From a candidate division WWE3 bacterium GW2011_GWB1_41_6 (lineage in GTDB: Bacteria; Patescibacteriota; WWE3; UBA101185; UBA10185): DNA of 64,000 bases. Numbering within the stretch: position 1 is the stretch's first letter; every line of letters starts with the position of its first letter. The position numbers and the translations under genes were made by a program. The notes under the pieces are model-generated. The model was not told where the DNA came from and made no database searches. It was given only the letters and a program-made list of their open reading frames with translations. This document shows, in pieces, positions 21,147-61,957 of the stretch. Location: contig LCBS01000001.1 of assembly GCA_000997355.1 (NCBI GenBank), positions 5,191 through 69,190 of the forward strand. Direction: 5' to 3'.

Positions 21147-21150
21147 CACG

Positions 21151-41594: not shown

Positions 41595-42599
41595 TTAGAA
41601 CATTCTGGAGTTATGGAACGACGTAACCAGCCTTTCCAGCAACTCAGGGGTTCCTCTCACCTTTCCAAAATACTGCTGGAACAACCCGATGAAGTATGCA
41701 AGCTTGGCCCTGTCTTCCGGAGATAGTTTTTCCGGGTTGGTAGTCTTATATACCTGAGAAACCCAAGTCAGGATACCAAGAATCTGCTTTCTGTACACTT
41801 CAGGCGTTGGACTTGACAGTGCCTCGTTCAATAACAAAACGTACGCATCCAGCTTGTCAGGGTCCAGCTCTAGTCTATCCTCATATACATGTGTTCCGAG
41901 ATACGATATCGGCATGTGTTCAAAACCCGCCGACCAACTTACCTGAAAATCATGCATTGAGATTATCTTTGCTACTGCCCTGTCTACCGCCCACAGATTT
42001 ACGGGTTTATCGAAAGAGAAACACATGTTATCGGCATACCTTGTATACGCTCTTAGCGGGAAGTTACCTAGGATAGCCAGTAAATCTTTGTCCATCGGAT
42101 CCACAACGGCGTTAAAAACATATGGTGTAGATACACATCCCTGTGGAGTAGTTCCTTCATACGTGAGCAGGGTGGCTATCAGTAAACGGACCTCCTTTGA
42201 CATCTTCCGGAACCTTCTTTCCAATAGCTTGTAAATCTTCTCCTTTGTCACATGATCGAAAGCATCCTTTAAATCAACCACTAATGCGGTTTTTGCTCCC
42301 TGGTGCGGTTTGATCGCGGGAATTATACCTTTGCCGGTATAGCAATAATCGGCACTTCCGCCGAATGTTTTTACAAACCACGACGCAAGTATCGACTGAA
42401 CATAAACCAGATCTTTTGTAGCCGGAACGATCCTTCTCTTTCCTCCACTTTTCTTTTTTACATAGAAGGGTTTCAAATATCGTTCCCTTTCGGCTAGTGA
42501 CACCAGTCTTGAGATTGTATTCCGGTACCTGACAAGTTCCTTGTCAAAAGACGGTGTCGTATTCTCTGCCATAGACCAGATAATACTCTCTACGAACAT
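41595..42599 (-). CDS. reverse transcriptase (compact, retron/group-II-like finger-palm)
   Basis: RT motifs 1-2 KKKSGGKRRIVPATKDLVYVQ, A VVDLKDAFDHV, B TPQGCVSTPYVFN, C YTRYADN (N where the second catalytic Asp is expected). Confidence 0.75.
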   Translation of the reverse strand: MFVESIIWSMAENTTPSFDKELVRYRNTISRLVSLAERERYLKPFYVKKKSGGKRRIVPATKDLVYVQSILASWFVKTFGGSADYCYTGKGIIPAIKPHQGAKTALVVDLKDAFDHVTKEKIYKLLERRFRKMSKEVRLLIATLLTYEGTTPQGCVSTPYVFNAVVDPMDKDLLAILGNFPLRAYTRYADNMCFSFDKPVNLWAVDRAVAKIISMHDFQVSWSAGFEHMPISYLGTHVYEDRLELDPDKLDAYVLLLNEALSSPTPEVYRKQILGILTWVSQVYKTTNPEKLSPEDRAKLAYFIGLFQQYFGKVRGTPELLERLVTSFHNSRMF

Positions 42600-42645: not shown

Positions 42646-43323
42646 CTAACCGGACATTTCAATTGACGCTCTCCTTACTCCACCCGCGCCTCTTAACAAT
42701 AGCAATAGCACGACCCCCGTCACAAAACCCCCGACATGAGCTCCATATGCAATGCCTCCCGTTTCAGCAATCCCGATCGTTCCCAGTCCTGCTAAAAATT
42801 GAAATAAAAACCAATACAACAACATCGTGTATGCCGGAACGGTAATTATCCTTACCACAAAGCCAAAGAATACAAGAACATCGATCCCGTGGCGCGGGAA
42901 CAGTACCAGATAGCCTCCCATTATTCCCGCAATTGCTCCGGAAGCTCCCAGGTTCGGGATACCGGATGCGGGGTTTAAAAATATCTGTAGCGCTGTTGCC
43001 CCTAAACCGACCAGTATATAGAAAAACAAATATTTTATCGAACCCAAACGATCCTCGAGATTGTCCCCGAAAATATATAAAAATAACATATTCCCAAAAA
43101 GATGTCCCAAACTACCATGAAGGAACATGGATGTTACAAGTGTATAAAGATTTTGGCCGTTAACAACCAGGTTTGGTATCAAAGCATACTGATTTACGAA
43201 CATTTCCAGTCCGGGCTCTGACATTCCAAACATAAAAAAGAAGACGGCAATGTTAATGCCAAGCAATAGAAAATTCAGTATAGGTATTTTTCCCGATGGT
43301 GTATGGTCTTTTATTGGCAGCAT
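42646..43323 (-). CDS. rhomboid-family intramembrane serine protease
   Basis: FLHGSLGHLFGNM, GASGAIAG (GxSG) and AHVGGF catalytic histidine; 6 TM helices. Confidence 0.7.
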   Translation of the reverse strand: MLPIKDHTPSGKIPILNFLLLGINIAVFFFMFGMSEPGLEMFVNQYALIPNLVVNGQNLYTLVTSMFLHGSLGHLFGNMLFLYIFGDNLEDRLGSIKYLFFYILVGLGATALQIFLNPASGIPNLGASGAIAGIMGGYLVLFPRHGIDVLVFFGFVVRIITVPAYTMLLYWFLFQFLAGLGTIGIAETGGIAYGAHVGGFVTGVVLLLLLRGAGGVRRASIEMSG

Positions 43324-44608: not shown

Positions 44609-46063
44609 ATGCTGCCAAGAACACTAACATTCGTCGATGTAGAGACAACAGGAGCGAGCCTTAGAAACAGCAGAATAATAGAGATAGGGATCATAAGAGT
44701 TGAGAACGATCAAGTCGTTGATACTTTTCATTCCCTTTTGGATCCGGAAACTCACATTCCTCCGGAGATACTTGAATTCACAGGTATAACCCAGGACGAA
44801 ATAAAAAATGCCCCCACATTCAGCCAAATAAAAGATACGGTCATGGAACTTTTTAACGACTCCGTTTTTGTAGCCCATAACGTGAAGTTCGACTACTCCT
44901 TTATAAAAAAAGAATTTGTAATGCTGGAGGAACAGTTCAACGCCAAAACCATGTGTACAGTAAACCTTTCACGAAGCCTTTTCCCTTTTTACCGCAAACA
45001 CAATCTTGACGCTTTGATCGAACGGCATGGAATTTCGTGTGTCCGCAGGCATAGGGCAATTGACGACGCCAAAGTGTTGGTCGAATTCTATCAAAAAATG
45101 CTGGATGAGATCCCTTCCGAAGTTTTGATACGGGCTTTTGATAAAGTTATGAAAAACGCCAATATTCCTACGAAAATAAAATCCCGTGTGATCGAAGGCC
45201 TTCCCGATACACCCGGGATATACGTTTTTTACGGAAAGAACGGAGTTCCGCTTTACGTGGGAAAAAGCGTGAATATAAAGTCACGGGTGAAATCCCACTT
45301 CGCAGGTTCGAATATTACGTCCAAGGACTTTAAACTATCCCAGCAGATTGAGGATATTTCTTTTATGAAAACGGCGGGAGAACTAGGTGCTTTATTAAAA
45401 GAAGCTGAACTGGTCAAGGAACTTCAGCCGGTATATAACTCACGTTTGCGGAATTATCAAAGCCTCGTGCTCTTAAAAAATGTTAAGAACGAAGAAGGCT
45501 ATGAAACTGTTGAGATTTTTGAGACAGACAACCCCACATATAACGAAGTGATAAACTCTTTGGGAATTTTTAAGTCGCGTTCCCAGGCAAAGAAAAGTCT
45601 GGAGGAAGTGAGGGATAAACACGATCTTTGCACAAAACTACTTGGGTTGGAAAGCACCAAAGGTTCGTGTTTCTTGCATAAACTGGAAAAATGCAACGGA
45701 GCCTGTGTGGGAAAAGAAAACCCGATGAAATACAATATGCGCTTTTATATGGCTTTTTCCGGAACGAAACTGACACAATGGCCGTTTGAAGGCCCTGTTG
45801 TAATATCAGAAGTTGATGAGCTGAACGGAAAGGTCGAACGTTTCCTCGTGAACAATTGGAGGGTTCTAAAGACGGTTGATGAAGCTGTTGAGGAGTTGGA
45901 TGACCGGGAGGAAAACGGGATGAAAGCAGGGATTATTGCTGATATGCAGGAAGATTTTATGTTCGATCTGGACAACTATAAGATCATCAAGAATTTTTTT
46001 AGGAAAAAGGAGAATTTGGAGAACATTAAGAGGATCGGAAGTTTTTCACAGTTGGAGTGGTAG
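44609..46063 (+). CDS. DnaQ-like 3'-5' exonuclease fused to a GIY-YIG nuclease domain
   Basis: Exo I FVDVETTG, Exo II/III HNVKFD ... HRAIDDA; GIY-YIG: GIYVFYGKNGVPLYVGKS ... R ... E. Confidence 0.75.
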   Translation: MLPRTLTFVDVETTGASLRNSRIIEIGIIRVENDQVVDTFHSLLDPETHIPPEILEFTGITQDEIKNAPTFSQIKDTVMELFNDSVFVAHNVKFDYSFIKKEFVMLEEQFNAKTMCTVNLSRSLFPFYRKHNLDALIERHGISCVRRHRAIDDAKVLVEFYQKMLDEIPSEVLIRAFDKVMKNANIPTKIKSRVIEGLPDTPGIYVFYGKNGVPLYVGKSVNIKSRVKSHFAGSNITSKDFKLSQQIEDISFMKTAGELGALLKEAELVKELQPVYNSRLRNYQSLVLLKNVKNEEGYETVEIFETDNPTYNEVINSLGIFKSRSQAKKSLEEVRDKHDLCTKLLGLESTKGSCFLHKLEKCNGACVGKENPMKYNMRFYMAFSGTKLTQWPFEGPVVISEVDELNGKVERFLVNNWRVLKTVDEAVEELDDREENGMKAGIIADMQEDFMFDLDNYKIIKNFFRKKENLENIKRIGSFSQLEW

Positions 46064-48385: not shown

Positions 48386-51300
48386 ATGAGGATCCTGCCA
48401 ACTCCAACCGATATTCGGAGGAAAAAACGTCTTAAACGGACGAAACTAACTTCGAAATTTGCTATATTTGTCGGAATGTCTCTGGTTTTGCTTATTGCAA
48501 TAGGGTCTCCCCTTGTTTCCAAAGAAATCCAAATAAAGAGAATCAAGACGGATAAAGAAGGTTTTCAGATGAACGAAAGTGTCGAGATCGATATGGGTTC
48601 GTATGAACCGGCTGAGCTGCACGTTTATCTTTTGCGCGGTGAGGAAAAGATCGAGATTAGTGCTGAGTCTATAACGATAGAAAACGGAACTTTATCTATT
48701 AAACCTAGCAAAGATATAAAACCCGGTGCTTACAACCTTATTATTCAGGACGGAACACGCGTAATATACGACAATAATTTTGCTTGGGGCGTTCTAGCCA
48801 TGAACTTCAACAAGTCAGTTTATTTGCCGGATGAAAAGGCTAATATCTCTATCGCGGTTCTGGATGATCAGGGAAATATGGTTTGCGACGCTAATCTAAC
48901 TTTAGTGGCAGAGAATGTGGAACTCGGCCTTACTACAACATTATCAACCGGGGATGATACCATCACAGTAAATCCCGATTGTTACAGGCACGGGTACACG
49001 CTCGATCCCGACTTTGAAACTGAGTACGGATTCGAAGGGATTGGCTCGTATGATTTTACACTTACTGCGGTAACGCAAAACGGTGAGTACGCAATAACCG
49101 ACCAAATAGAAGTCCGTGAAAGTGTTCCATTTGATGTCGAGCGACTTATTGCCACAAGAATATATCCTGCTGATAAATATCCTGTGAATATAGTTATCAC
49201 AGCAAACCAGGACTTTAGCGGTGTGATCCAGGAAACTATTCCTGCGGAATTTGAAATAACTCCGCCATTACACTCCACATCATATGAACTTATTGATGAG
49301 GCGGATAGTAAAAAGTATATTACATGGCAGGTTAACTTAACAGCCGGGGAAACAATTAATATCGGGTATTACTTTAAAGCTCCTGAAATAAGCCCACAGT
49401 TTTATTTGCTTGGAACTCTAAAGTTCTATGAGATCAAAGATGTGGTTGATAATGCACTGGATATTGAAGACATAGAAAATAATGAGGATTTATATGTTGA
49501 GTATGAAACGGAATCGAGTGAGTCCACTGAGTCAAGCGAATACGATAACCAGCAATCATTTCTAATAAGAAACGTCTATGCGGAGGAGTCCACTGAGTCG
49601 GGATTGAGCGTCGACGAATTGGAAGAATTAATGAACTTTGTTCCTCAATCACAAATCGTAGAAGAGGAAGAAAATGTATTGTCCGGCACAGTAATACAAG
49701 AAGAGTTCTTGGTTTTTGAGGAAACGCGCAAGTGGCAGCTTGCGATTGACGTTGTAGCCAAGATGATACTGCTTTGGGACAATGCTTCTTCCATCCCGAC
49801 TGATTGGACATGTTTATCGTGCGGATCGGGGGATTTTTATAACAGGTTTATCAGGGGGTCGGATGCTTACGGAACATCTCAAGGCGGAAACACCTCCCAC
49901 ACTCACTCCGATCCGGGAACCTTAACACTTGTTGATAGTTCAGGTGACTTAGGTACAGCCGGATCCAGCAATACCAACAAACCTCCCAAACAGGATCATA
50001 CCCATCAGATTGCCTCGCCCAGCGTTGCTTCGGGACTTTCAGCTGATAATTTACCAGCATATCGCACCTTAAGAGTAATACGTTATGATTTTGGCATACC
50101 GGCAACATTACCGGCGGGGGTAATTGCATATTTTGTTGACTCTGTACCGGGGGGCTGGACAAAAGTTTATAACGACGGAACCACACCCAGATACGCAAGG
50201 GGAGCAGATACCGTTACCACCGGAGGAAGCAATACCCATACCCATACATTACCCCTAAACAACTCGGCCGGACCCCTTGGAGTACAAAATGTTAAAGGTG
50301 CGGCAAGCGGTACCACTGTTGCCAGTTCCGGCCATACTCATAATAGTACCAGCGGTAGCTCAAACTCCGGGTCAAGTGAGCCGCCATACGTTAACGTCAC
50401 TCTTGCCCAAAAAGATTCAACGGGCGCTGTAACCACTAACATGATTGCCATGTTTGACAACACACCTCCGGCGGGAAATTGGACATTAAAGTCCGATTCA
50501 GGCAGCACTTTTTATCAAAGATTTCCCAGACCTACCGATACCAGCTTAGATACTACCAGTGATACCAGCGCGCACACCCATAGCAACTTTACTATCAATT
50601 CCAGCACCTTAACCGGAGGTACAGGTGACGGTATTGTGGGATCGGGTGGAACCGCTTTTAGCAGCACTTCCCATCAGCATGGAATTACCTTTAGCTTAGA
50701 CTCGCAGGATCATACTCCTGTATATTGGGATGCCATTTTTGCAAAAGCTACAAGTGCTCCCTCCCCTAACCTGGAACAAATCCATTACCACTGGAGGAAC
50801 GACAGCGATAATGAAGCTAACGCCACATCAGCTACAAGCGGAACGGAGGATACGTCACTCAATATAACTAGCGGTTCCAACAAAAGATTGAGAATCGGCG
50901 TTGCTAATGAAGGAGGTGCAGCTGCTGAGGATGTGACGTTCCGTCTGGAATACGGAGCCAAATCTACTACATGCGGTGCTATAGGCACTTGGGTAGATGT
51001 CGGAGCTGATGGAGACGACTGGGATATGTATAACACAACTAACCTTACGGACGGAAACGATACAACAGACATAAGCAATACAATAGGGGGCGTTACTAAT
51101 ACAAATCCTACATTCAAAACGCCAAACACAGGAGTAAAAGATGCCTCCTCGCAGGTTGGGGTTTTGGATCTAACCATAGAAGACTTTACAGAAATGGAGT
51201 TTTCGGTTACGGCTGCGGGTAGCGTGGGGGATTACTGTTTTAGACTAACAAATGCCGGATCAACCACGAACATAACTACTACCACATATGCACTTGCCAG

Positions 51301-52531
51301 TATTACCAACGCAAACACAGCCCCCAACACTCCAACAAGCCTTGTTCAAGCTAAAACGGATGATACGGTTCTAAGTACGGGTGATTGGACGGATGAAACG
51401 TCAGTCAAGTTCACCGCTACCGCGGATGATACAGACGCCAGCGACACCCTCTACCTTTGCGTAGAGAAAGACGACACAGACACTGCTTTCTCGGGAACCG
51501 AGGATCTTTGCGGGAACGGGGTAGCATACTCAGGAACACCAGTCTCTGTTTCGGTAACAATTACAAGTATAACTGATGCAACCCAATATCACTGGCAAGC
51601 CAGAGTCAAAGACGCCGCTAATGAGTATTCTTCGATGCAGGTATACGGAGCCAACTCCGACACAACCCCCGGAGCCGACCGTGATTTTGGCGTTGATACC
51701 ACAGCTCCGACGGGCGGCACGGTTTATGATGGAACGGAAGCCGGAGTAGACAAAGACTTCAGTACTGCATCGCTATCTCAACTATCTGCTAATTGGGGGA
51801 GTTTTAATGCTGCAGCTTCAGGGTTGCAGTATTATGAATACTCTATAGGAACAACCCAGGGTGGAGTTGATACCAAAGGTTGGACGAATGCAACAACCGA
51901 CACCTCCGTAACTGCTACCGGTTTAACATTAATGACATCCAAAATTTACTATTTTAATGTCCGGGCAACGGATAACGCAGATAATGTTCAATCGGCAGTC
52001 TCGTCAGACGGACAAGTTGTCGCACCAAGTTTGGCATTTAGTGTCACGCCGCCGTCCATCACGTTCACCAACCTTGGGCCAGGTAATAGTTATACAGCAA
52101 CGAACAACGCAACATTAACAACATCAACCAATGCGTATAACGGATACGTTATCAGAGCATATACAACCGATCTATTAAAATCCATAGACCTCACCGATAA
52201 TATAATTAATTTTAACGGAGGATCTTATGCCGCACCCGACGAATGGTTGAGCGGTGACAGAGGTTTTGGCTACTACACTTCCGACACTTCTGTTCAAGGT
52301 TCTAATATATTCAATCCCCCAACCTGTCTTGGTGGAGGCAGTTCACCCTGCTACGCACCGTTCTCTCAAACAGCACCGGGTGACATTATTGCGGATAATA
52401 CCGGTACAATTACAGGAACACCTATAACCGCGGAGGAATTTACAGTTAATTTTAAGGTTCAGGTTAACCCTACTCAGGCGACTTCCGATTATAGTACGAC
52501 CGTTGTTTATACGGTGACAGCGCAGTACTAA
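48386..52531 (+). CDS. giant cell-surface protein with tandem phage-tail-collar-like domains and FN3 domains
   Basis: Signal anchor; at least 3 repeats of (I/V)A(M/Y)F ... P.GW ... then T(S/N)HTH (collar-domain LPxHxH pattern); FN3 with DNADNVQS; 1381 aa. Confidence 0.7.
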   Translation: MRILPTPTDIRRKKRLKRTKLTSKFAIFVGMSLVLLIAIGSPLVSKEIQIKRIKTDKEGFQMNESVEIDMGSYEPAELHVYLLRGEEKIEISAESITIENGTLSIKPSKDIKPGAYNLIIQDGTRVIYDNNFAWGVLAMNFNKSVYLPDEKANISIAVLDDQGNMVCDANLTLVAENVELGLTTTLSTGDDTITVNPDCYRHGYTLDPDFETEYGFEGIGSYDFTLTAVTQNGEYAITDQIEVRESVPFDVERLIATRIYPADKYPVNIVITANQDFSGVIQETIPAEFEITPPLHSTSYELIDEADSKKYITWQVNLTAGETINIGYYFKAPEISPQFYLLGTLKFYEIKDVVDNALDIEDIENNEDLYVEYETESSESTESSEYDNQQSFLIRNVYAEESTESGLSVDELEELMNFVPQSQIVEEEENVLSGTVIQEEFLVFEETRKWQLAIDVVAKMILLWDNASSIPTDWTCLSCGSGDFYNRFIRGSDAYGTSQGGNTSHTHSDPGTLTLVDSSGDLGTAGSSNTNKPPKQDHTHQIASPSVASGLSADNLPAYRTLRVIRYDFGIPATLPAGVIAYFVDSVPGGWTKVYNDGTTPRYARGADTVTTGGSNTHTHTLPLNNSAGPLGVQNVKGAASGTTVASSGHTHNSTSGSSNSGSSEPPYVNVTLAQKDSTGAVTTNMIAMFDNTPPAGNWTLKSDSGSTFYQRFPRPTDTSLDTTSDTSAHTHSNFTINSSTLTGGTGDGIVGSGGTAFSSTSHQHGITFSLDSQDHTPVYWDAIFAKATSAPSPNLEQIHYHWRNDSDNEANATSATSGTEDTSLNITSGSNKRLRIGVANEGGAAAEDVTFRLEYGAKSTTCGAIGTWVDVGADGDDWDMYNTTNLTDGNDTTDISNTIGGVTNTNPTFKTPNTGVKDASSQVGVLDLTIEDFTEMEFSVTAAGSVGDYCFRLTNAGSTTNITTTTYALASITNANTAPNTPTSLVQAKTDDTVLSTGDWTDETSVKFTATADDTDASDTLYLCVEKDDTDTAFSGTEDLCGNGVAYSGTPVSVSVTITSITDATQYHWQARVKDAANEYSSMQVYGANSDTTPGADRDFGVDTTAPTGGTVYDGTEAGVDKDFSTASLSQLSANWGSFNAAASGLQYYEYSIGTTQGGVDTKGWTNATTDTSVTATGLTLMTSKIYYFNVRATDNADNVQSAVSSDGQVVAPSLAFSVTPPSITFTNLGPGNSYTATNNATLTTSTNAYNGYVIRAYTTDLLKSIDLTDNIINFNGGSYAAPDEWLSGDRGFGYYTSDTSVQGSNIFNPPTCLGGGSSPCYAPFSQTAPGDIIADNTGTITGTPITAEEFTVNFKVQVNPTQATSDYSTTVVYTVTAQY

Positions 52532-52533
52532 AA

Positions 52534-52562
52534 TCGGGTTAAACCCGATTTTGCACCGTTGT
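52534..52562 (+). terminator. rho-independent terminator
   Basis: atcgggtt aa acccgat followed by TTT. Confidence 0.4.
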
Positions 52563-52672
52563 ATAAGGGTTTTTCAACTCCACTTTTTACATATTGTCAC
52601 TGTCATTTCCGTAATGTATTCATACATTTTCATCTTGCACGAGTTTCCGGTTAGGGGTATTCTGAGAATCCT

Positions 52673-52894
52673 ATGAGCAAACAAAACATCAAAACTCACG
52701 AACCTGAATCTAATGAACCAAAATCTACTTTAACAGGACCACCCGATAATAAAAGAGTAAGTAGCTATGAAAAATATCTTACAAAAGACGGTGAGTATAG
52801 TGATATAAACAAGGTGAGGGAATTATTGAAAAAGGCAAGGAAAGCATTTAATAAAAGTTCAAAACAAAAGAAGAAATGGGAAGAAAAATGTTAA
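52673..52894 (+). CDS. small lysine-rich hypothetical protein
   Basis: 73 aa, basic C-terminus. Confidence 0.3.
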   Translation: MSKQNIKTHEPESNEPKSTLTGPPDNKRVSSYEKYLTKDGEYSDINKVRELLKKARKAFNKSSKQKKKWEEKC

Positions 52895-52977
52895 CTACTG
52901 GAAAGGTACTAAACAAAAGTATTGTTTCATATGTTAGCATATTGCAATGTTCATTATAATATACTAGATTAGTTTAT

Positions 52978-53535
52978 ATGGAAAACCCAACTATTTCTGA
53001 CATATATAAAATATTACTTAGGATAGAGGCTGATATTGTATCCATTAAAAAGACTTTATCTGAACACTCTATAATATTAAATGAGCATTCGAGAATCTTA
53101 GACGAGCATTCGAATATATTACAAAAGCATTCGAAAATTTTAGCAAGTCACACAAAAACACTTAATAGCCACTCCAAAATTTTGATAAATCACTCCAAAA
53201 TTTTGAAGGAACATTCCAAAAAATTTTTAGAACATGATAGTAAGTTTGACACACTCCAAAAACTTATTTTGGACAATCGCGGGAAAATAATGGTTCTGAA
53301 TGAAAGCGTAATAGAAATTAAGGGGGAGTTAGCTGCTTTTCGGCATGAAACAAATACCAGATTTGAGGAAATAGAAAACAAAATAAAGTTTCTGCCACAA
53401 CTTCAAAATAATATCGATAACTTCTTGACAGAGATAATAGAATACAGATCCGAACACGTTGCAATTGACAACAGACTTCATGATCACCGTAAGCGTATTT
53501 CCGATCTTGAGAAAAAGGCCGTAGATTTTAAATAA
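52978..53535 (+). CDS. alpha-helical protein built on eight HSxIL heptads
   Basis: NEHSRIL / DEHSNIL / QKHSKIL / ASHTKTL / NSHSKIL / INHSKIL / KEHSKKF, then a coiled-coil tail. Confidence 0.5.
   Translation: MENPTISDIYKILLRIEADIVSIKKTLSEHSIILNEHSRILDEHSNILQKHSKILASHTKTLNSHSKILINHSKILKEHSKKFLEHDSKFDTLQKLILDNRGKIMVLNESVIEIKGELAAFRHETNTRFEEIENKIKFLPQLQNNIDNFLTEIIEYRSEHVAIDNRLHDHRKRISDLEKKAVDFK
53059..53250 (+). repeat. 8-9 copies of a degenerate 21-bp tandem repeat inside the CDS
   Basis: gaacactctataatattaaat / gagcattcgagaatcttagac / gagcattcgaatatattacaa / aagcattcgaaaattttagca ... Confidence 0.7.
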
Positions 53536-53562
53536 AAGGGCAAAATAGGTTAAAATTAATAC

Positions 53563-54702
53563 ATGCGCTCTATATACTCACCCGCCCGTTTGGTTTGGCC
53601 TTTAAATAAAATAATACGAATATTACTTTTGTCACAAGCCCTTATACTCTTCTCAGCTTTTGCGATTTCTAAAACAGCTGTTGCTCAAGTCATCGACAAT
53701 AATACTCAAGAATCAACGTCGGTAATAATCGAAGAAGAGCCGTTAGATGAACCTACATTAGATTCCCAGTTGGAACCACCAGCTCCCGCGTACATCCCTG
53801 ATATGCAAAACCCCCAATCGGCACTAGGTGTTTCACCTGCCATAATTGAGATCATTTTAGATCCTGGACAATCCACAACAGAAATAGTGACGGTTTTTAA
53901 TATCACGAACTTCCCTATTCCCGTAAAAGGGTTGGCACACAATTTTACGGTAAACGAAAAGTTGTCTTTGACCGAAGATCAGGCAAATATATTTAATGCA
54001 TCGCAATGGATAGGTTTGGAACCGGCAGATTTTATCCTACAGCCAAATCAGGAGCAAGAGATTATCGTTACCATTAACACTCCGGAAAACGCAGAACCGG
54101 GAGGACACTATGCAACAGTATATTTTCAGCCGTTGATACCGGCGGAGTTCATTTCCCAACAAAACACATTTTTGACAGCGCGGGTAGGAATACTTACTTT
54201 TTTTATCGTTAAAGGTGACATTCGCGAAGAAGCAAATATTAAAAATTTATTAACTAAGAACCTTCACCAATCAGGCCCAATTATCTTTGATGTTCCTATT
54301 ATAAACACAGGTAACGTTCATATAATACCAACCGGATTTGTAACCATAAAAAACATGGCCGGAAAAGAAACGGCAAAACTGGAGATTTCAAAAGGCGCCG
54401 TTTTACCTGGTACAGAGCGTATACTTACCGCCCAGTGGCCGAAAAAACTATTATTTGGAAAATATTCAGCTCAAGTGGCAATCACATACAGCGCTGATAA
54501 TCGGATTAGCCAAAGCCCGGAAATAACCTTTTGGGTAATTCCATGGGTTATGATTATCATTATAATTCTCTCATTGACAGTGGTTTATCTACTACTTACA
54601 ATTATGAGAACACGTATTGTTCTTGCTCTGAAGATCCTCTTAGGTAAAGCCGATCCGAAAGACGTGAGAATTACGCGTAGTTCTAGATCGTCAAAAAATT
54701 AA
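53563..54702 (+). CDS. secreted protein with C-terminal TM anchor (paralog A; DUF916/COG1470-like architecture)
   Basis: Signal peptide; AEPGGHYATVYF; C-terminal TM helix followed by basic tail LALKILLGKAD. Confidence 0.5.
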   Translation: MRSIYSPARLVWPLNKIIRILLLSQALILFSAFAISKTAVAQVIDNNTQESTSVIIEEEPLDEPTLDSQLEPPAPAYIPDMQNPQSALGVSPAIIEIILDPGQSTTEIVTVFNITNFPIPVKGLAHNFTVNEKLSLTEDQANIFNASQWIGLEPADFILQPNQEQEIIVTINTPENAEPGGHYATVYFQPLIPAEFISQQNTFLTARVGILTFFIVKGDIREEANIKNLLTKNLHQSGPIIFDVPIINTGNVHIIPTGFVTIKNMAGKETAKLEISKGAVLPGTERILTAQWPKKLLFGKYSAQVAITYSADNRISQSPEITFWVIPWVMIIIIILSLTVVYLLLTIMRTRIVLALKILLGKADPKDVRITRSSRSSKN

Positions 54703-54726
54703 AAATCCCTAAGGAGGTGATTTAGT

Positions 54727-55809
54727 TTGCATAAATTAAGAAAGTTTTCCAGCGGAATCATCGTTTCTTTGGTTGTTTTCTTTGGACTACTGATGTTGCC
54801 CAGATTAGTAGCTCATGCTGCAACTTTGACTACGGGTTCTTTATCCATAAGTGATTCACGACCAAGTACAGCCTCTGTTACATATACAGCCACATTTAGC
54901 AACGTTTCAAACTCGGCAATAAAATGTATTCAGATGCAGTTTGACACTCAATCAGATGGGGCAGGTTCAGCACCAACAGGTATGGTAACTTCAGGTGCCA
55001 CTTATAACGCAGCAGGCTCTGATTATGTTCCGGATGTTCAATCTTGGACGGCAGCCAGCTCAACAGCAGGATTGGTTAAAATAACCAACGCAACCGGGGA
55101 AACTGCTGCAGGAGGAACAGGCATTGTTGTTCTAACAGGTATAACTAACGGGAGTACAGCGGAAACATCTTACTTCATGATTCTTACCACATTTACGGAT
55201 GACGCCTGTACGGGTGGAAATGAGGTCGATACGGGAACTGTAAAGTTCATTTATACCACAGGTCAACTGGTATCTCTTACGATTGATCCTTCTTTGACTT
55301 TTACGGTTGATGCGGTAGCTGATACCGAAACCGTAAACGGCGAGGACCTGACAATTACAACAACCGACGGAACAATACCGTTCACCGGAGTCACAGTATC
55401 TGCAAATGGCGTTGGTGCACATTTGTTAACAGTTAATACTAATGCAGGCGGAGGTTACACCGTATACACAAGATATACCGCAGCGTTGACAAACGTAGCT
55501 TCGGACACAATTACAGATCATACCGGAACCAATGCTCAACCAAGCTCATTTCCTTCTGTGGGAACGGAAGCCTTTGGGTATACTACAACTGACACCACAC
55601 TAACTGCAACCGGTGACGGAGCAGATAGGTTTACAACACCTGCAAATCAGTGGGCAGCGTTCACAACCGGCAATTTAGAAGTTGCCTACAGCGCAGGTCC
55701 CGTAAGCAACGAGGAAACAACGATCGGTTATCAGGTAGGAGTTGCAGGAGCAACAGAAGCCGGTGTTTACAACACAACGATAATTCTAACAGCTACCCCT
55801 ACATACTAA
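54727..55809 (+). CDS. secreted Thr/Gly/Ala-rich beta protein (TTG start)
   Basis: RBS aaggaggtga 7 nt upstream of TTG; signal peptide; low-complexity T/G/A-rich body. Confidence 0.5.
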   Translation: MHKLRKFSSGIIVSLVVFFGLLMLPRLVAHAATLTTGSLSISDSRPSTASVTYTATFSNVSNSAIKCIQMQFDTQSDGAGSAPTGMVTSGATYNAAGSDYVPDVQSWTAASSTAGLVKITNATGETAAGGTGIVVLTGITNGSTAETSYFMILTTFTDDACTGGNEVDTGTVKFIYTTGQLVSLTIDPSLTFTVDAVADTETVNGEDLTITTTDGTIPFTGVTVSANGVGAHLLTVNTNAGGGYTVYTRYTAALTNVASDTITDHTGTNAQPSSFPSVGTEAFGYTTTDTTLTATGDGADRFTTPANQWAAFTTGNLEVAYSAGPVSNEETTIGYQVGVAGATEAGVYNTTIILTATPTY

Positions 55810-55894
55810 TGAAAAAGTAGGGGATGTTGTTAAGACAGCGTGTTAGTATTACTTTGGTTAATTGTTTGCTTAAGTAACTTAGAACGAACTATGT

Positions 55895-56860
55895 ATGACT
55901 AAACCAAAAATTAAATGGCATCAATCAGTTATTACTGTACTCATTGGGTTGGGACTAACACTTATCACATCCATAGTATTAGCTCAGGAACAACCCGGTT
56001 CCCAAGGATCCTCGGGAACCGGTATGGCGATATCACCACCGACTTTTGAACTTACGGGAAATCCCGGAGATGTCATTGACAACACAATCAAGCTTACCAA
56101 CCTCTCAAACCGACCTATAACCATTGGTGTAGATCGCCGTAATTTTACTGCCGTCGGTGAAGAAGGTGCTGTGGGCTTAACGGACGAGGAAACAACTTTT
56201 TCCTTAGCTAGTTGGATCACGGTAAGTCCTTCAGAAGTAACGATAGAACCCGGACAAAGTCAGATCTTTTCTTTCAGAACATCGGTCCCATACAATGCGG
56301 AACCTGGAGGACATTTTGGGTCGGTAATTTTTAAAACGGGCGGGCAGACTCCCGGTTCATCAGGTGCTGCAGTAGCCCAGGAGGTAGCGTCGCTGATTCT
56401 TTTAAGAGTAGCGGGACAAACAACGGTCAGCGGAGAAATCCTTTCATTTACCACAAACAAATCATTTTATGACTACGGACCCATAGACTTCGAAGCAAGG
56501 GTAATAAACGAAGGTAGTGTTCATATCAAGCCAATTGGGTCTATCACGATAAATAATATGTTCGGTAAGCAGGTGGATAAGATTGCCATAGAACCGAAAA
56601 ATGTTCTGCCTGACGCAACCAGGCGAATCCCGGCAAGCTGGAATAAAAAATATCTTATTGGTAAATATACCGCAACTGTCGTATTTTCATATGGAACTAA
56701 CGGTGAAACTATGATAAAATCTACCACATTTAGCGGATTTCCCGTTAAAGAAGGGGGGATCATCTTAGCAGCATTACTCATACTGCTTGCCATACTGTTC
56801 AAAATGAGAAAAAGACTACGCCTGGCATTTAAAATTCTCTTTGGAAATTACAAAGCTTAG
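55895..56860 (+). CDS. secreted protein with C-terminal TM anchor (paralog B)
   Basis: AEPGGHFGSVIF aligns with paralog A, and the C-terminal halves are collinear; tail LAFKILFGNYKA. Confidence 0.5.
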   Translation: MTKPKIKWHQSVITVLIGLGLTLITSIVLAQEQPGSQGSSGTGMAISPPTFELTGNPGDVIDNTIKLTNLSNRPITIGVDRRNFTAVGEEGAVGLTDEETTFSLASWITVSPSEVTIEPGQSQIFSFRTSVPYNAEPGGHFGSVIFKTGGQTPGSSGAAVAQEVASLILLRVAGQTTVSGEILSFTTNKSFYDYGPIDFEARVINEGSVHIKPIGSITINNMFGKQVDKIAIEPKNVLPDATRRIPASWNKKYLIGKYTATVVFSYGTNGETMIKSTTFSGFPVKEGGIILAALLILLAILFKMRKRLRLAFKILFGNYKA

Positions 56861-56880
56861 ATTTAACATGCGCAATAACG

Positions 56881-57825
56881 ATGAGATTTATAAGAGCGAC
56901 AACTGCCATATGTATAATACTAACTGTCTTTACACTTGCTGTTAGACACTCCCAAGCAACTTCAATTAATGTAAGTCTTATTGTGGGTGATACCCGGCTT
57001 ACGTTTCAGGGAAAAACATCGCCTAGTTCGCAAGTAACTTTTACAGAAAATAACAGTGTTATCGGAACTACGGCGTCTGATAATACGGGATATTTCGAAA
57101 AAGAGTTCATTTACAGTTATCCTGCGGATGATATACACAATATTACAATTTATTCGGTTAACGGACTTGGTCAGATGTCCAATCCCATTCTTTACAGTGT
57201 CTTTTTATCCGAATTCACTAACACTACGATTGGCAATCTAATATTACCGCCAACGATTGCTTTATCGGCATTAACAACCGTACAAGGTACCAGCATAACA
57301 GCCAGCGGCTACACCGTTCCAGACTCCTTACTAACCCTTTTATTTTTTAATTCTGCTACCACTCTGAACTCAACTTCTACAGCGGATGGTTACTGGGAGG
57401 TTGCGATAGACACAACGGCGTTAAACTCGGGTACACATACTGTATACGGGAAAACCACTGCTGAAGGGGGGTATCTGAGCGATGAAAGCGAGCACAAAAA
57501 CTTTATAGTCACATCTCCGGCCGCCGCAGACTCCGGTAGTGATGACAATGGAGGGGACAATAATGATGACTCAAGCGATTCAGAGTCAGGCAGTTCATCA
57601 ACCGGAACAACAACACAGGATGTATCCAACCTAATTTGCGCCCTTCCAAACTTTCTCAAATTATTTGATTGGGATTTTAACTGTAAGATCAATTTTGATG
57701 AATACGCCTCTTCAGCACGAAGTTGGGTTGGTTTATGGAGAATAGACCAAGAGCCCTGCGACATAAACAGTGACGGCAGGTGCGATATTAGGGATTTTTC
57801 TATACTGCTTTACCATGTATACTAA
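56881..57825 (+). CDS. secreted protein with C-terminal dockerin-like module
   Basis: Two 12-residue Ca-binding loops: DWDFNCKINFDE and DINSDGRCDIRD, about 24 aa apart. Confidence 0.5.
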   Translation: MRFIRATTAICIILTVFTLAVRHSQATSINVSLIVGDTRLTFQGKTSPSSQVTFTENNSVIGTTASDNTGYFEKEFIYSYPADDIHNITIYSVNGLGQMSNPILYSVFLSEFTNTTIGNLILPPTIALSALTTVQGTSITASGYTVPDSLLTLLFFNSATTLNSTSTADGYWEVAIDTTALNSGTHTVYGKTTAEGGYLSDESEHKNFIVTSPAAADSGSDDNGGDNNDDSSDSESGSSSTGTTTQDVSNLICALPNFLKLFDWDFNCKINFDEYASSARSWVGLWRIDQEPCDINSDGRCDIRDFSILLYHVY

Positions 57826-57835
57826 ATAGTAATAT

Positions 57836-58855
57836 ATGTTCATGCCGGGAGTATCCATTTTATTTAAGTTTGTATCCATCACCTTATCTTCCTGGTTGCT
57901 TGTTCATGTTCTTGCTATTTTCGGAGGATTTATAGCCTTTGCCTACCCTATCTGGTGGTATCTTTCCCCGGAAAATACAGTCTGTCTTGTTTGCCATGCA
58001 GGAAAAGAACAGAAGTGGTGCTCATTTTGTAGACGTGCGATTAGCAAAACCCAGTTATCACCAAAAAGCATCCGTTCGGCTTTTCTGAACGGAATATTGA
58101 TCTTATTCTTTTCCGTAATTTCCGGATTGGTGGTATATGCCGAGTACGCCCTTATTACAACATATAACCCCTCACTCACCGGAAAAAGCGCGTCGTTCCT
58201 TGTCCCAAGTAGTAACAATAAGCACAAGATCGGTGAGATATTCCCCATGGAGGTTTTTGTTGAAGGTATAAAAACACCTATTAATACTGTTCAAATAGAT
58301 CTTTCCTTTGATCCCTCTACGCTCGAAGCTATAAAAATTTCGACAGATGACTCTTTTGCGACTGTTTTTATTGATAAAGTAATCAACAATGAGGTTGGCT
58401 ATACCAGACTGACCGGAGGTCTACCAAATCCCGGCTATGATCAAAGCAAAGGTTACTTCGGAACGGTGTATTTTAAAGGAAAAATTCCCGGTGTGGCGTT
58501 GGTGGAGTTCTTACCTACATCGGTTGTTCTGGCCAATAACGGGCGCGGAACTAATGTTCTTAAAACTCTTGGTACGGCATCGTTTCTGATTTTACCTGAA
58601 ACCGTTAGTCCGGAAGAAACCGCAAGTCAGGAAGTTAAATTAAATCCGCTTGTTCTCGGAGAATCCACGGATAATACAAAACTCTATTTATACGAGGAAA
58701 ATGATATTTTAGGAACGCAGTCGGAAAGCACGATGGAAGAAGTGGACGTAAGTGAACAAAGTATTTTCACACTGTTTCTGGACGTGCTCCATAAAGTCGA
58801 CGAGCTGATAATATCATTTTGGAAAAACATTTTTGATTTTGTGTTAGGAAAATAA
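57836..58855 (+). CDS. membrane protein with zinc-ribbon-like tetracysteine and a cohesin-like beta domain
   Basis: Two TM helices flank CLVCH ... CSFCRR; extracytoplasmic INTVQIDLSFDPSTLEAIKI ... GYFGTVYFKGKIPGVALVEF. Confidence 0.45.
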   Translation: MFMPGVSILFKFVSITLSSWLLVHVLAIFGGFIAFAYPIWWYLSPENTVCLVCHAGKEQKWCSFCRRAISKTQLSPKSIRSAFLNGILILFFSVISGLVVYAEYALITTYNPSLTGKSASFLVPSSNNKHKIGEIFPMEVFVEGIKTPINTVQIDLSFDPSTLEAIKISTDDSFATVFIDKVINNEVGYTRLTGGLPNPGYDQSKGYFGTVYFKGKIPGVALVEFLPTSVVLANNGRGTNVLKTLGTASFLILPETVSPEETASQEVKLNPLVLGESTDNTKLYLYEENDILGTQSESTMEEVDVSEQSIFTLFLDVLHKVDELIISFWKNIFDFVLGK

Positions 58856-59785: not shown

Positions 59786-61957
59786 TTATATTACAATATC
59801 CCCATTCTCCGCGTATGAATATAAATTGGATGCCGTAAGCTCATCTTTATTAACATAAGAAGGAAAAGTCACCTTAAGTTTGTATTTAATTTGAGTGAAA
59901 TCGGGCCCAAAACCATGGACATTTTGCTCAGGGTAGGGAGTTTCATAAAATTTCTCCTCTACAAATGTTGTATAAGGAGAAAGCATAGTGGAGAATAATG
60001 CAGTTTGGACTTTTCTATCCTGACTCAAATTACTGGCAGAAAGCACATTTCCGGTAGATCTAAAAATTTGACGCTTCCCCCATTTACTAAGAACCCACGG
60101 TTCTGTCTCACCTGTTGCTTTCCCACTAGCATCAAGGGTAGAGATAGGAATCTCAAATTCAACCTTCCCCTCAACCGATGTCTGGTACGATTTTACTCTA
60201 GCAGTAAAATGAGCAAATTTTACCCATCTCATATACTGATCACTGACGATTTCCCATTCTTCAGAAGGGATATTTTTCCTCAATTTCAATATATACTTAA
60301 TCTCTTCTTCTAGTCCGAGGAGTTTCTTTTCAAACCCTTCTAATTCTTCAGCGTTAATTTCAGAGGGGTGTTGAATAGCTTTCTTGGCTACAGTAGGTGG
60401 AACTCCTTCGTTCACTGCAAATATGTACTCCCACCTTTTCATTGAGTCTTCAACCGGATCCCGATCCTCACCAAAACGGACCTTATAATATTTTACTGCC
60501 CACTCGTACATTTTAGGACTATCATTTTCAAGTTTATCCGGATCCATAAGCAATAACGAAAACAATTCCGAAAACCGTTCACTATACCTGTCTAACAATT
60601 CTTTTTCCTTATTATCCGAACCCAACATCTGCACATATTGCGTCAAAGCATCCGATTCATAAGGCAACACTGACAGATATTCGGCCATTAACTCCGGATA
60701 GGACAAAAATGATAGGATTTCCCCGTGGGCAACCTCGTGTATACACCCATATACTTCCTCCGGACTAAACTTCTCTCCAACATTTCCCGCCATAAACATG
60801 AATGTTCCGTTACTTGGTCTATACGAACCCCAAATAGAACCGACATCGAGCTGCCCGTCCGTAAATTTCTGGGATATTCTTCCTATACTTAAAACTCCCA
60901 TTTCTCGAGCACTTGATTTAACTATCTTTTCGAGCCGTTGACGCATCTCAACTGGAACAATAACTTCTATCAAGTTACCCAATCTTTCCTCCTCACTCTT
61001 ATCAAAATTCTCAAATCGAGGATCAGGATCATAGTCTTCCAACCCTAAAAATCTCTTTGACCTTGGAATAGTAACATCCAAATATTCTTTAAAATCTCCA
61101 AGACTTGTCTTTTCTTGATCTAAAAGCAAGTAGATCGATTGTTCCCCTATTTCCTTTATAAAAGGCTCCTCCTCAATCCCATAAAAATTTACACGGCTAC
61201 ATAAGTTATCAACAAAAACACTGAGATCTACGGGTGGTTCCATATCTTTACTTTTAAACCACTCAATAGCCCCATTCTCTGCATGTTTACTAAGTCTATG
61301 GACATGTTCTCTAAGACGTTGTTCTTCCTGACACGCATGGGCAATAAGCTCTAATTCCTCAACTGAATATAATTCAGTAACGTTTGTATTTTCTATTCTT
61401 TGATACTCACCGTGGAATTTATCACTAAGCTCCGCATTTGATGCAATTGTGTAAACTTTTATAGCATCATCTTTAGTTACAATCGGCATTTGATATTTTT
61501 CAGCCAGTTTTTGTAGTTCCTCATTAAAAATATCCAAACCGCGTGAATCCGTCACTTTGGTGATCAAAGTCTCATGATATTGAATATCCAATTCCGGGTT
61601 ATTCATATCATTTCGAAAAGCCCAGTAATTTTCGATTACTTTAATACCCTCAGCAGTCTCAGATTCCCAAGTTCTATTAACTTCCTGTATTGCTCTGTTC
61701 TTGATGATTTTTACTAATTCTGGTGCTTTTTCGCGGGATATACTAATCTCAGTTTGCGCTTTTATCTTTTTTATATCTTCTACGGGAATGCCGCTCCACA
61801 ATGCCTCCCTCTCCGAATGTTCGTTCTGAACAGCTTGTTCATTGAAATCTACGATACTATCGATCGATCCTTCGGGAGATGTGGAACCGGGCATAAAATA
61901 ATTGTAACACCGGGGATAAAGGAGAAAAAGTAGAAGAAAAAAAGTGTGTTTTTCCAT
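59786..61957 (-). CDS. large secreted hypothetical protein with HExxH motif
   Basis: Signal peptide; single HEVAH embedded in CIHEVAHGEIL; 723 aa. Confidence 0.45.
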   Translation of the reverse strand: MEKHTFFLLLFLLYPRCYNYFMPGSTSPEGSIDSIVDFNEQAVQNEHSEREALWSGIPVEDIKKIKAQTEISISREKAPELVKIIKNRAIQEVNRTWESETAEGIKVIENYWAFRNDMNNPELDIQYHETLITKVTDSRGLDIFNEELQKLAEKYQMPIVTKDDAIKVYTIASNAELSDKFHGEYQRIENTNVTELYSVEELELIAHACQEEQRLREHVHRLSKHAENGAIEWFKSKDMEPPVDLSVFVDNLCSRVNFYGIEEEPFIKEIGEQSIYLLLDQEKTSLGDFKEYLDVTIPRSKRFLGLEDYDPDPRFENFDKSEEERLGNLIEVIVPVEMRQRLEKIVKSSAREMGVLSIGRISQKFTDGQLDVGSIWGSYRPSNGTFMFMAGNVGEKFSPEEVYGCIHEVAHGEILSFLSYPELMAEYLSVLPYESDALTQYVQMLGSDNKEKELLDRYSERFSELFSLLLMDPDKLENDSPKMYEWAVKYYKVRFGEDRDPVEDSMKRWEYIFAVNEGVPPTVAKKAIQHPSEINAEELEGFEKKLLGLEEEIKYILKLRKNIPSEEWEIVSDQYMRWVKFAHFTARVKSYQTSVEGKVEFEIPISTLDASGKATGETEPWVLSKWGKRQIFRSTGNVLSASNLSQDRKVQTALFSTMLSPYTTFVEEKFYETPYPEQNVHGFGPDFTQIKYKLKVTFPSYVNKDELTASNLYSYAENGDIVI

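Follow-up and report, generated by a model that had tools for sequence, protein, structure and literature searches.

The question raised by positions 48386–58855 of the 64,000-nucleotide stretch of candidate division WWE3 DNA analysed here (contig LCBS01000001.1; the whole stretch is called the window) is what a run of seven consecutive genes on one strand, most of them encoding exported or membrane proteins, would build at the cell surface. The likely answer is that the region is an operon for a Pam-type pilus, as a divergent member or a variant of that system. The initial annotation of this DNA had suggested a dedicated, non-covalently assembled attachment apparatus made of orphan surface proteins. 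Synteny and the lack of a sortase bear out the direction of that suggestion, although a predicted pilus assembled through donor-strand exchange takes the place of a loose set of adhesins. The proteins are also not orphans, as at least 316 homologs of g4, at least 611 of g5 and 109 of g1 were found.

Pam pili are recently described attachment filaments of ultrasmall bacteria, known from Ca. Mycosynbacter amalyticus (Saccharimonadia), the thin filaments of which were solved by cryo-electron microscopy (cryo-EM; Troman et al., bioRxiv 10.64898/2026.03.03.709456). According to this preprint, the filament consists of the two-domain pilins PamA and PamB, with a linker strand that fills the open immunoglobulin (Ig)-like C-terminal domain of the neighbouring subunit. 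PamC and PamD are chaperones of the PapD/FimC fold with a C-terminal transmembrane (TM) helix as their distinguishing feature, PamT is an acceptor-only tip subunit, PamR is an RbmA-like terminator of the Ig/FnIII type that is anchored by a C-terminal TM helix, and an usher is absent. A conserved 'tail fibre-like' neighbour and an ATP-synthase neighbourhood of the pam operons are described in the same work.

Gene content and conservation of the locus

The genes, as taken from the list of open reading frames (ORFs), are as follows.

48386–52531, + strand, g1, 1381 residues
52673–52894, + strand, hydrophilic ORF of 73 residues between g1 and g2, not conserved, overlooked by the initial annotation
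52978–53535, + strand, g2, 185 residues
53563–54702, + strand, g3, 379 residues
54727–55809, + strand, g4, 360 residues, TTG start
55895–56860, + strand, g5, 321 residues
56881–57825, + strand, g6, 314 residues
57836–58855, + strand, g7, 339 residues

Seven consecutive co-oriented genes had been reported, and seven + strand ORFs are found at exactly these coordinates, with short intergenic gaps (10–85 nucleotides) from g2 to g7. A hydropathy scan detected an N-terminal signal or anchor segment in g1, g4 and g6, several N-terminal TM segments in g7, and a signal peptide together with a C-terminal TM helix in both g3 and g5. The same scan found no hydrophobic segment in g2 or in the 73-residue ORF, so that the earlier description of all seven products as surface or membrane proteins holds for six of them and fails for g2. 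The reported absence of enzymatic motifs is borne out, with no enzyme-family match in Pfam or NCBIfam for any of the seven. So is that of a sortase system: a C-terminal LPXTG signal is present in none of the seven proteins, and a regular-expression search for TLxTC in the window ORFs longer than 150 residues gave no match. This stretch of DNA recurs in four ENA metagenome assemblies with more than 99.6% identity. Candidate strain variants of g1 and g7 in sister contigs were rejected, as the differences are scaffold N-gaps.

To survey conservation of the locus, a single representative genome of each GTDB species was scanned with the family alignment of g4. This yielded 76 loci, the gene content of which was determined by tblastn. 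Matches were distributed as follows.

g3-like genes, 70 of 76 loci
g5-like genes, 70 of 76 loci
g1-like genes, mainly the C-terminal 170–420 residues and upstream of the chaperone gene, 57 of 76 loci
g6-like genes, 27 of 76 loci
g7-like genes, 19 of 76 loci
all flanking genes, 0 of 76 loci

The usual order is that of the g1 C-terminal domain, g3, g4 (one to three copies), g5, g6 and g7, all on a single strand, and in more distant loci the g1–g3 module is inverted as a unit. The synteny that the initial annotation had named as its own test is thus kept across 76 species-level loci, and the operon has a conserved context in CPR (Candidate Phyla Radiation) genomes. The titles of the locus records, which are the sole source of taxonomy for loci and homologs alike and many of which look mislabelled, name WWE3, Woesebacteria, Levyibacteriota, Roizmanbacteria, Dojkabacteria, Saccharimonadia and Parcubacteria. 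Where homologs carry a source name, it is WWE3, Woesebacteria, Levybacteria, Saccharibacteria or 'Patescibacteria group'. Many Third Party Annotation (TPA) metagenome-assembled genomes (MAGs) with a CPR-type operon (L007, L011, L024, L028 and others) bear titles such as 'uncultured Gammaproteobacteria', 'Pseudomonadales', 'Clostridia', 'Acidimicrobiales' or 'Nanoarchaeia'; these titles are probably taxonomic mislabels or reflect bin contamination.

Two reading frames stand apart from this conserved set. The heptad-repeat helical protein of the initial annotation, g2, does contain eight consecutive xHSxIL heptads (xHSxILx; EHSIIL, EHSRIL, EHSNIL, KHSKIL and others), although its membership of a surface apparatus is not upheld, the protein being predicted as cytoplasmic and without a counterpart in the other loci. 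Neither g2 nor the 73-residue ORF has a tblastn match at any of the 76 related loci, and among 1.84 billion representative proteins similarity to g2 is found at the level of the heptad repeat only. Approximately 412 small proteins of this global library (mostly 100–300 residues) share nothing but that repeat with g2. The guanine-plus-cytosine (GC) content of the bin that holds both frames (52001–54000) is 0.372. Together, g2 and the 73-residue ORF look like a lineage-specific low-GC insertion between g1 and g3 that is unrelated to the system.

The pilin, the chaperones and the giant protein

The core identification in the operon is that of g4 as the major Pam-type pilin, and it is a solid one. 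The protein matches the NCBIfam model NF058581 (CPR_Pam_pilin_C, 'Pam pilus system pilin subunit') with E = 2e-8 and 34.4 bits over profile positions 4–148 of 148, a significant match that lies under the curated cutoff of 55 bits; its C-terminal domain alone scores 38.1 bits. The same model is matched by 51 of 55 members of the g4 family (best E = 3.6e-13). On the strength of these matches, the product described initially as a Thr-rich secreted protein between two paralogs is read as a pilin that would polymerize. The features of g4 and of its upstream region are as follows.

54574–54602, + strand, promoter-like site TTGACA-17-TACAAT with 11 of 12 consensus matches, inside the 3' end of g3 and upstream of g4
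54711–54719, + strand, strong Shine–Dalgarno sequence AAGGAGGTG that precedes the TTG start codon of g4
55252–55293, + strand, linker TTGQLVSLTIDPSL, candidate donor strand
g4 protein layout, signal peptide, N-terminal β-sandwich, linker (residues ~176–189) and C-terminal pilin domain (residues 215–360)

The AF2 model of g4 (predicted local distance difference test score, pLDDT, 88.7) contains two all-β domains connected by a coil linker of lower confidence, and thus predicts the two-domain pilin architecture with a conserved linker. In the family alignment, the Cys67/Cys161 pair of the N-terminal β-sandwich is invariant, as are Gly179 and Gln180 of the linker, and Val182 and Val186 are nearly invariant. 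A linker that is conserved and yet unstructured in the model of the monomer fits a strand that becomes ordered only once it is donated; by analogy with the linker donation that the preprint states for Pam, this segment may be the donor strand. The top match of the g4 model in a Foldseek search of the PDB is a donor-strand-complemented CfaE–CfaB pilin fusion (CFA/I; E = 1.8e-6). In the 76 loci, g4-like genes are often found by tblastn as tandem duplicates, as pilin genes are.

The strong Shine–Dalgarno sequence and the promoter-like site would fit a major subunit, both being consensus matches only. By inspection, the former is the only canonical sequence of its kind among the printed upstream sequences of these genes. 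The σ70-like site before g4 is a consensus match alone, since a promoter and terminator scan of the region gave site counts no higher than those of shuffled controls. A candidate attenuator between g4 and g5 was rejected because the RNA fold is no better than that of shuffled sequences (z = 0.29).

The genes that flank g4 encode a pair of related proteins, g3 and g5 (32% identity, E = 1e-38 in a pairwise comparison). They had been described as paralogous C-anchored β-proteins, and both the paralogy and the TM anchor are upheld, whereas the adhesin role implied for them gives way to a chaperone fold. The AF2 model of g5 (pLDDT 89.6) shows a pair of Ig domains followed by a TM helix (residues 284–316); by hydropathy, the C-terminal helix spans residues ~317–361 in g3 and 279–308 in g5. 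A Foldseek search with the g5 model retrieved CfaA (E = 7e-11) and the Enterococcus faecium WxLIP structures 9i25_C (E = 8.6e-11, TMt 0.56) and 9i1y (E ~ 9e-11), the TMt of the WxLIP matches being ~0.55, and further matches to CsuC, FimC, Caf1M and PapD extended down to about E = 1e-8. In Pfam, g5 matches fn3_5 just under the cutoff (27.1 bits) and WxLIP_PGBD (DUF916, PF06030) with 22.5 bits and E = 1.3e-4 (cutoff 27.3); several g5 homologs are annotated as PF06030/DUF916. A sequence search of the PDB with the family profile did not find WxLIP. The combination that marks PamC and PamD, a PapD/FimC fold with a C-terminal TM helix, is thus present, on a fold search in the case of g5 and by paralogy in that of g3, and the two are predicted from these models to be membrane-tethered assembly chaperones of the chaperone-usher/WxLIP fold.

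Of 45 chaperone genes of the g3 type, 39 directly follow a g1-like gene; of 82 of the g5 type, 66 directly follow a g4-like gene. Because of this conserved gene pairing, g3 is probably dedicated to g1 and g5 to g4. Within the g5 coding region there is also a 28-nucleotide near-perfect palindrome, CCGGTTCCCAAGGATCCTCGGGAACCGG (55995–56022), with a 12-base-pair stem that includes eight GC pairs; it lies about 100 nucleotides into the gene, in a Gly/Ser-rich coding stretch after the signal peptide, and is not followed by a T-run.

The giant protein g1 had been described as a tail-collar/FN3 protein, a description that finds no support: Pfam gives only sub-threshold matches to Ig_Rha78A_N and MG2, and PHROGs gives none. 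Its coverage by 109 homologs shows a mosaic, as follows.

g1 residues 19–46, signal or anchor segment
g1 residues ~50–350, N-terminal module shared with other CPR proteins
g1 residues 351–455, acidic linker
g1 residues 456–800, HxH-motif repeat region
g1 residues ~970–1381, conserved C-terminal module
52061–52531, + strand, Pam-pilin-like C-terminal domain (residues ~1226–1381)

The last ~155 residues match NF058581 (E = 9e-4, profile positions 7–148 of 148), and no match to the PamT model NF058579 was found for this domain. BLASTP aligns it with the C-terminal domain of g4 (E = 5e-4) up to the final residue, with a four-residue gap at the linker. A joint alignment of g1-like proteins and g4-family pilins shows the common motifs PSL[ST]F, LTTSTNAYNGY, GFGYT[ST]xD and Y.V.P.Y, and the GQxVSLTVD linker segment is missing from every g1-like protein in it. 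These proteins occur in two size forms, giants of 1000–3300 residues and proteins of ~355 residues, and the segment is missing from both. A pilin-type domain that lacks the pilin linker is read as that of an acceptor-only subunit, i.e. of a tip adhesin, and the N-terminal parts of the g1-like proteins are highly variable, as expected of adhesins. Thus, g1 is probably the tip adhesin, comparable to FimH, PapG or CfaE, or to a PamT fused to a variable adhesin region.

The repeat region of g1 contains seven HxH motifs and was read by eye as three repeats of ~110 residues. The module at residues 50–350 is shared by approximately 100 other giant CPR proteins. Many of these carry a Peptidase_M23 domain and several lose the match to g1 at residues ~301–307, where g1 itself has no such domain. 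One of them (P0250, 1804 residues) combines M23 with a match to the whole C-terminal module of g1 (residues 977–1381), the part that in g1 includes the pilin-type domain. There are hints here that the M23-containing relatives of g1 could be pilus-tip cell-wall hydrolases.

The candidate anchor and the proposed assembly

The two last genes had been described as a dockerin-like/cohesin-like pair, and at the family level this holds, with Dockerin_1 in eight of 16 aligned g6 homologs of the dockerin type and Cohesin in 14 of 19 g7 homologs (best E = 2.6e-8). The relevant features are as follows.

g6 protein layout, signal peptide, tandem Big_6-type Ig-like region (two domains by eye), acidic linker and C-terminal dockerin-like module
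57760–57810, + strand, dockerin-like module of g6 (residues 294–310) with the Ca-binding-type motif DINSDGRCDIRDFSILLY
g7 protein layout, TM segments, CxxC..CxxC motif, cohesin domain and conserved C-terminal amphipathic helix
58214–58477, + strand, cohesin domain of g7 (residues ~127–214)

The match of g7 itself to Pfam Cohesin (PF00963) has E = 1e-3 and 19.7 bits (cutoff 24.1), and g6 shows the dockerin motif with no match to Pfam dockerin (PF00404) at E ≤ 0.01. Every one of the 16 aligned g6 homologs contains Big_6.

The C-terminus of g6 homologs varies together with the presence of g7.

dockerin-ended g6 homologs, n = 15, separate g7-like cohesin gene downstream in 15
TM-helix-ended g6 homologs, n = 7, separate g7-like cohesin gene downstream in 0
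single ORF with Ig domains, dockerin, TM segments and cohesin, n = 2 (L017 and L073), fused

Three of the TM-ended homologs, in the same operon position, contain segments that match the PamR model (NF058578; E = 2e-23 in L025, 2e-11 in L020 and 8e-5 in L021). In L023, a PamR homolog (E = 6e-60 to NF058578) lies directly upstream of two pilins that are 41–44% identical to g4. The switch of the C-terminus with g7 and the PamR-like segments in TM-ended relatives together suggest that g6 is the counterpart of the base component in the PamR position, where it would contact the pilus. The TM anchor seems to have been exchanged in this lineage for a dockerin that would bind the membrane cohesin of g7, making g7 the candidate membrane receptor. 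The PamR features are not seen in g6 itself, which has no TM helix and no match to NF058578 at E ≤ 1. Direct orthology of g6 and PamR was rejected on the pairwise and profile results, and the link between them rests on the bridging homologs L025, L020 and L021. The idea that the N-terminal VSLIVGD segment of g6 mimics the VSLTIDP segment of the g4 linker is likewise unsupported (hhalign E = 0.64–0.8). At three loci (L038, 9292–11489; L062, 14095–~15200; L068, 13554–~15200), two tandem cohesin-type proteins follow the g6-like gene, the g6 homologs of the same loci carrying two dockerin repeats, which suggests variation in the valency of the anchor.

From these assignments an assembly pathway can be proposed. 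All structural parts would be exported by Sec, after which g3 and g5, held in the cytoplasmic membrane by their C-terminal helices, would cap the incomplete Ig-like C-terminal domains of their clients. The fibre would be nucleated at its distal end by g1, the pilin-type domain of which could accept a strand and has no donor linker to offer. Beneath it g4 would polymerize, with the linker of each subunit (about LVSLTIDP) inserted into the C-terminal domain of the one before it. At the base, g6 would dock through its C-terminal dockerin on the membrane-borne cohesin of g7. The resulting filament would probably mediate contact with a host or partner cell.

Several points weigh against this interpretation. 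All NCBIfam Pam matches in the window lie under their curated cutoffs (for g4, 34.4 against 55 bits), and neither g3, g5 nor g6 matches any Pam-specific NCBIfam model. The Foldseek matches of g4 to pilins have low TM-scores (0.17–0.23) and are mixed with generic two-domain Ig adhesins. Pairwise BLAST between g6 and PamR-like proteins is not significant, the profile match between them covers a single generic Ig domain (Prob 76%), and the N-terminal strand of g6 could be no more than strand A of the Big_6 domain. The association between a dockerin end and a cohesin gene (15/15 versus 0/7, Fisher p = 6e-6) counts homologs without regard to phylogeny. The ATP-synthase neighbours of pam operons are missing, with no F1 alpha or beta motif in the 64-kb window. 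Likeness to PamA–PamT of M. amalyticus was judged from the NCBIfam models and the description in the preprint. Sequence searches of the PDB with g4, g5, g1 and the family profiles A1 and A2 returned nothing meaningful; the PamA and PamB structures are apparently missing from the copy searched or too divergent to be detected.

The most serious alternative, although an unlikely one, is a WxL-type display cluster that forms no filament, in which g1 and g4 would not polymerize and their C-terminal domains would be held at the envelope by the WxLIP-like g3 and g5, in the way proposed for WxL loci of Enterococcus and Lactobacillus. WxL clusters comprise a large and a small protein that share a C-terminal domain together with a DUF916–DUF3324–TM protein (PMC10599100), a logic identical to that of the present cluster. 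The g5 model is also as close to the E. faecium WxLIP structures as to pilus chaperones, and the sub-threshold WxLIP_PGBD match of g5 and the DUF916 annotation of some of its homologs point in the same direction. However, the C-terminal domains of g1 and g4 match a Pam pilin model that was built from filaments proven by cryo-EM, no Pfam WxL family matches either protein at E ≤ 0.1 and Foldseek placed no WxL chain at the top of the PDB matches to g4. The tandem duplication of g4-like genes in the fashion of pilins also argues against display without a filament. A g4 linker that is conserved and is missing from g1-like proteins would moreover be hard to explain without donor-strand polymerization. 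The Pam and WxL interpretations may both be true if the two systems are homologous.

A set of independent adhesins or a cellulosome-like cohesin–dockerin scaffold, with genes that have no relation in assembly, comes near the view of the initial annotation and could account for the cohesin and dockerin modules, the many Ig-like domains and the absence of any encoded enzyme or ATPase (Pfam and NCBIfam). It is rated as quite improbable in view of a gene order and orientation that are kept in 76 genomes, the recurring gene pairs, the chaperone fold of g3 and g5 and the pilin-type domain common to g1 and g4; in addition, no glycoside hydrolase or carbohydrate-binding module was matched. Even less probability attaches to the remnant of a prophage or tailocin in which g1 would be the tail fibre. 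The HxH motifs in the repeat region of g1, which we take to be reminiscent of phage fibre or collar proteins, were counted in its favour, as was the name 'tail fibre-like' given in the preprint to the conserved neighbour. Against it, g1 carries a Sec signal or anchor and a pilin domain, the region is chromosomal with the same partners in many CPR genomes and no phage family was found among the neighbouring genes scanned. PHROGs gave no match for g1, g2, g6, g7 or the 73-residue ORF, and the phage reading was therefore dropped. A Pam-type pilus thus remains the preferred interpretation of the locus.

Neighbouring genes and comparison with known systems

Elsewhere in the window, type IV pilus genes lie at 19347–22557 (+ strand) and probably continue to ~25100; they encode a PilB-like T2SSE ATPase (E = 5e-123) and, carrying an SH3 domain at its C-terminus, a PilC-like T2SSF protein. 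Several small ORFs that are possible pilins come next. The organism thus appears to carry a type IV pilus in addition to the Pam-type pilus. A retron-type reverse transcriptase gene (41595–42599, − strand; NF038233, retron St85 family, E = 1.4e-28, under the cutoff) adjoins a gene for a rhomboid-family protease (42646–43323, − strand). Just upstream of the operon, 44609–46063 (+ strand) encodes a 484-residue fusion of a DEDD (DnaQ-like) exonuclease and a GIY-YIG/UvrC-Cho-like nuclease (NF005906, E = 2e-73; excinuclease Cho, E = 7e-55). Directly downstream, an ORF of 723 residues (59786–61957, − strand) has no match in Pfam or NCBIfam and is present at none of the 76 related loci; it lies within a region of strongly negative GC skew (−0.244).

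Among known surface systems, sortase-assembled pili differ from this locus, since neither LPXTG signals in the seven proteins nor a sortase motif in the longer window ORFs was found by the regular-expression searches given above. Cohesin–dockerin complexes of the cellulosome type are similar in that a dockerin, DINSDGRCDIRDFSILLY, is located on a secreted protein (g6) and a cohesin on a cell-bound protein encoded adjacently (g7). In contrast to cellulosomes, there are no enzymes and no scaffoldin repeats here, the proposed cargo is a pilus component, most close g6 homologs show only one clear dockerin repeat, and g7 has TM helices as its anchor in place of S-layer homology (SLH) domains or a sortase.

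The chaperone-usher pili (Pap, Fim, CFA/I, Csu and Caf1) share with this locus the fold of the chaperones and, as proposed here, a pilin with an incomplete Ig domain that is completed by a donated strand, together with a tip adhesin the C-terminal pilin domain of which accepts a strand and never donates one (FimH, PapG and CfaE). They differ in that the present system has neither an outer membrane nor an usher, and no usher-like protein was found by Pfam or NCBIfam in the operon or in the conserved neighbourhood of the 76 loci. Its chaperones are anchored in the membrane, the candidate donor strand is an internal linker in place of an N-terminal extension and the pilin has an extra N-terminal domain.

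The WxL/WxLIP system of Enterococcus, Lactobacillus and Listeria (PMC10599100; PDB entries 9i1y and 9i25) resembles g3 and g5 in fold, C-terminal TM helix and a weak sequence signal. It resembles the cluster as a whole in combining large and small proteins that have one common C-terminal domain with membrane-tethered Ig-pair proteins. It differs in that no WxL domain or W-x-L motif was detected in g1 or g4, in that WxL proteins are described as peptidoglycan-bound surface proteins and not as filaments, and in its Firmicutes hosts.

The Pam system itself is the closest in kind. Common features are a pilin of two predicted domains that carries a signal peptide for Sec and resembles the Pam pilins in its C-terminal domain, a pair of paralogous chaperones that have the PapD/FimC fold and a TM helix at the C-terminus, the lack of an usher, ATPase and sortase, and restriction to CPR. 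Further points of likeness are a candidate acceptor-only protein encoded at an end of the operon, a candidate anchored component with Ig repeats and a large 'tail fibre-like' protein conserved nearby. The present operon differs in its scores, which lie under the cutoffs of the NCBIfam Pam models (NF058578, NF058579 and NF058581), and in having a single pilin gene where the Pam system has PamA, PamB and PamE. The candidate PamT-like acceptor domain is fused here to a 1,200-residue adhesin-like N-terminal region. The protein in the PamR position, g6, lacks a TM helix and PamR-specific segments and ends in a dockerin with a membrane cohesin as its partner. The CPR lineage is also a different one, the closest named relatives being MAGs of WWE3, Woesebacteria and Patescibacteria.

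Pam pili are so far the sole CPR-specific surface filament with a solved structure and are thought to be the first to contact the host. The locus, which has hundreds of homologs, extends this system to a lineage remote from Saccharimonadia. It suggests that two chaperones share the work, one serving the tip adhesin and the other the pilin, and that host specificity is likely to be set by a tip protein of modular build that varies rapidly. The anchoring device also seems to have been exchanged in evolution, taking the form of a TM helix, of a dockerin/cohesin pair or of a fusion. A search of the preprint text gave no mention of a dockerin/cohesin anchor, of an acceptor domain fused to a giant adhesin or of a connection to WxLIP/DUF916 (bioRxiv 10.64898/2026.03.03.709456). 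The two conserved substrate–chaperone gene pairs are a reading of the present analysis, and the preprint was not searched for them.

A broader proposal, tentative and carrying more doubt than confidence, is that both of two things are true: that the g6–g7 dockerin–cohesin clasp replaces the TM helix at the base of the Pam pilus, and that Pam and the WxL/WxLIP proteins of Firmicutes belong to one ancient family. If so, a cohesin–dockerin clasp would for the first time be seen to anchor, and potentially to release, a pilus. Pam and WxL/WxLIP would then represent usher-less, donor-strand systems of monoderm envelopes that rely on membrane chaperones, with giant modular tips recognizing the host, and the fold-level link to WxLIP would supply a mechanistic model for the WxL loci of enterococci and lactobacilli.

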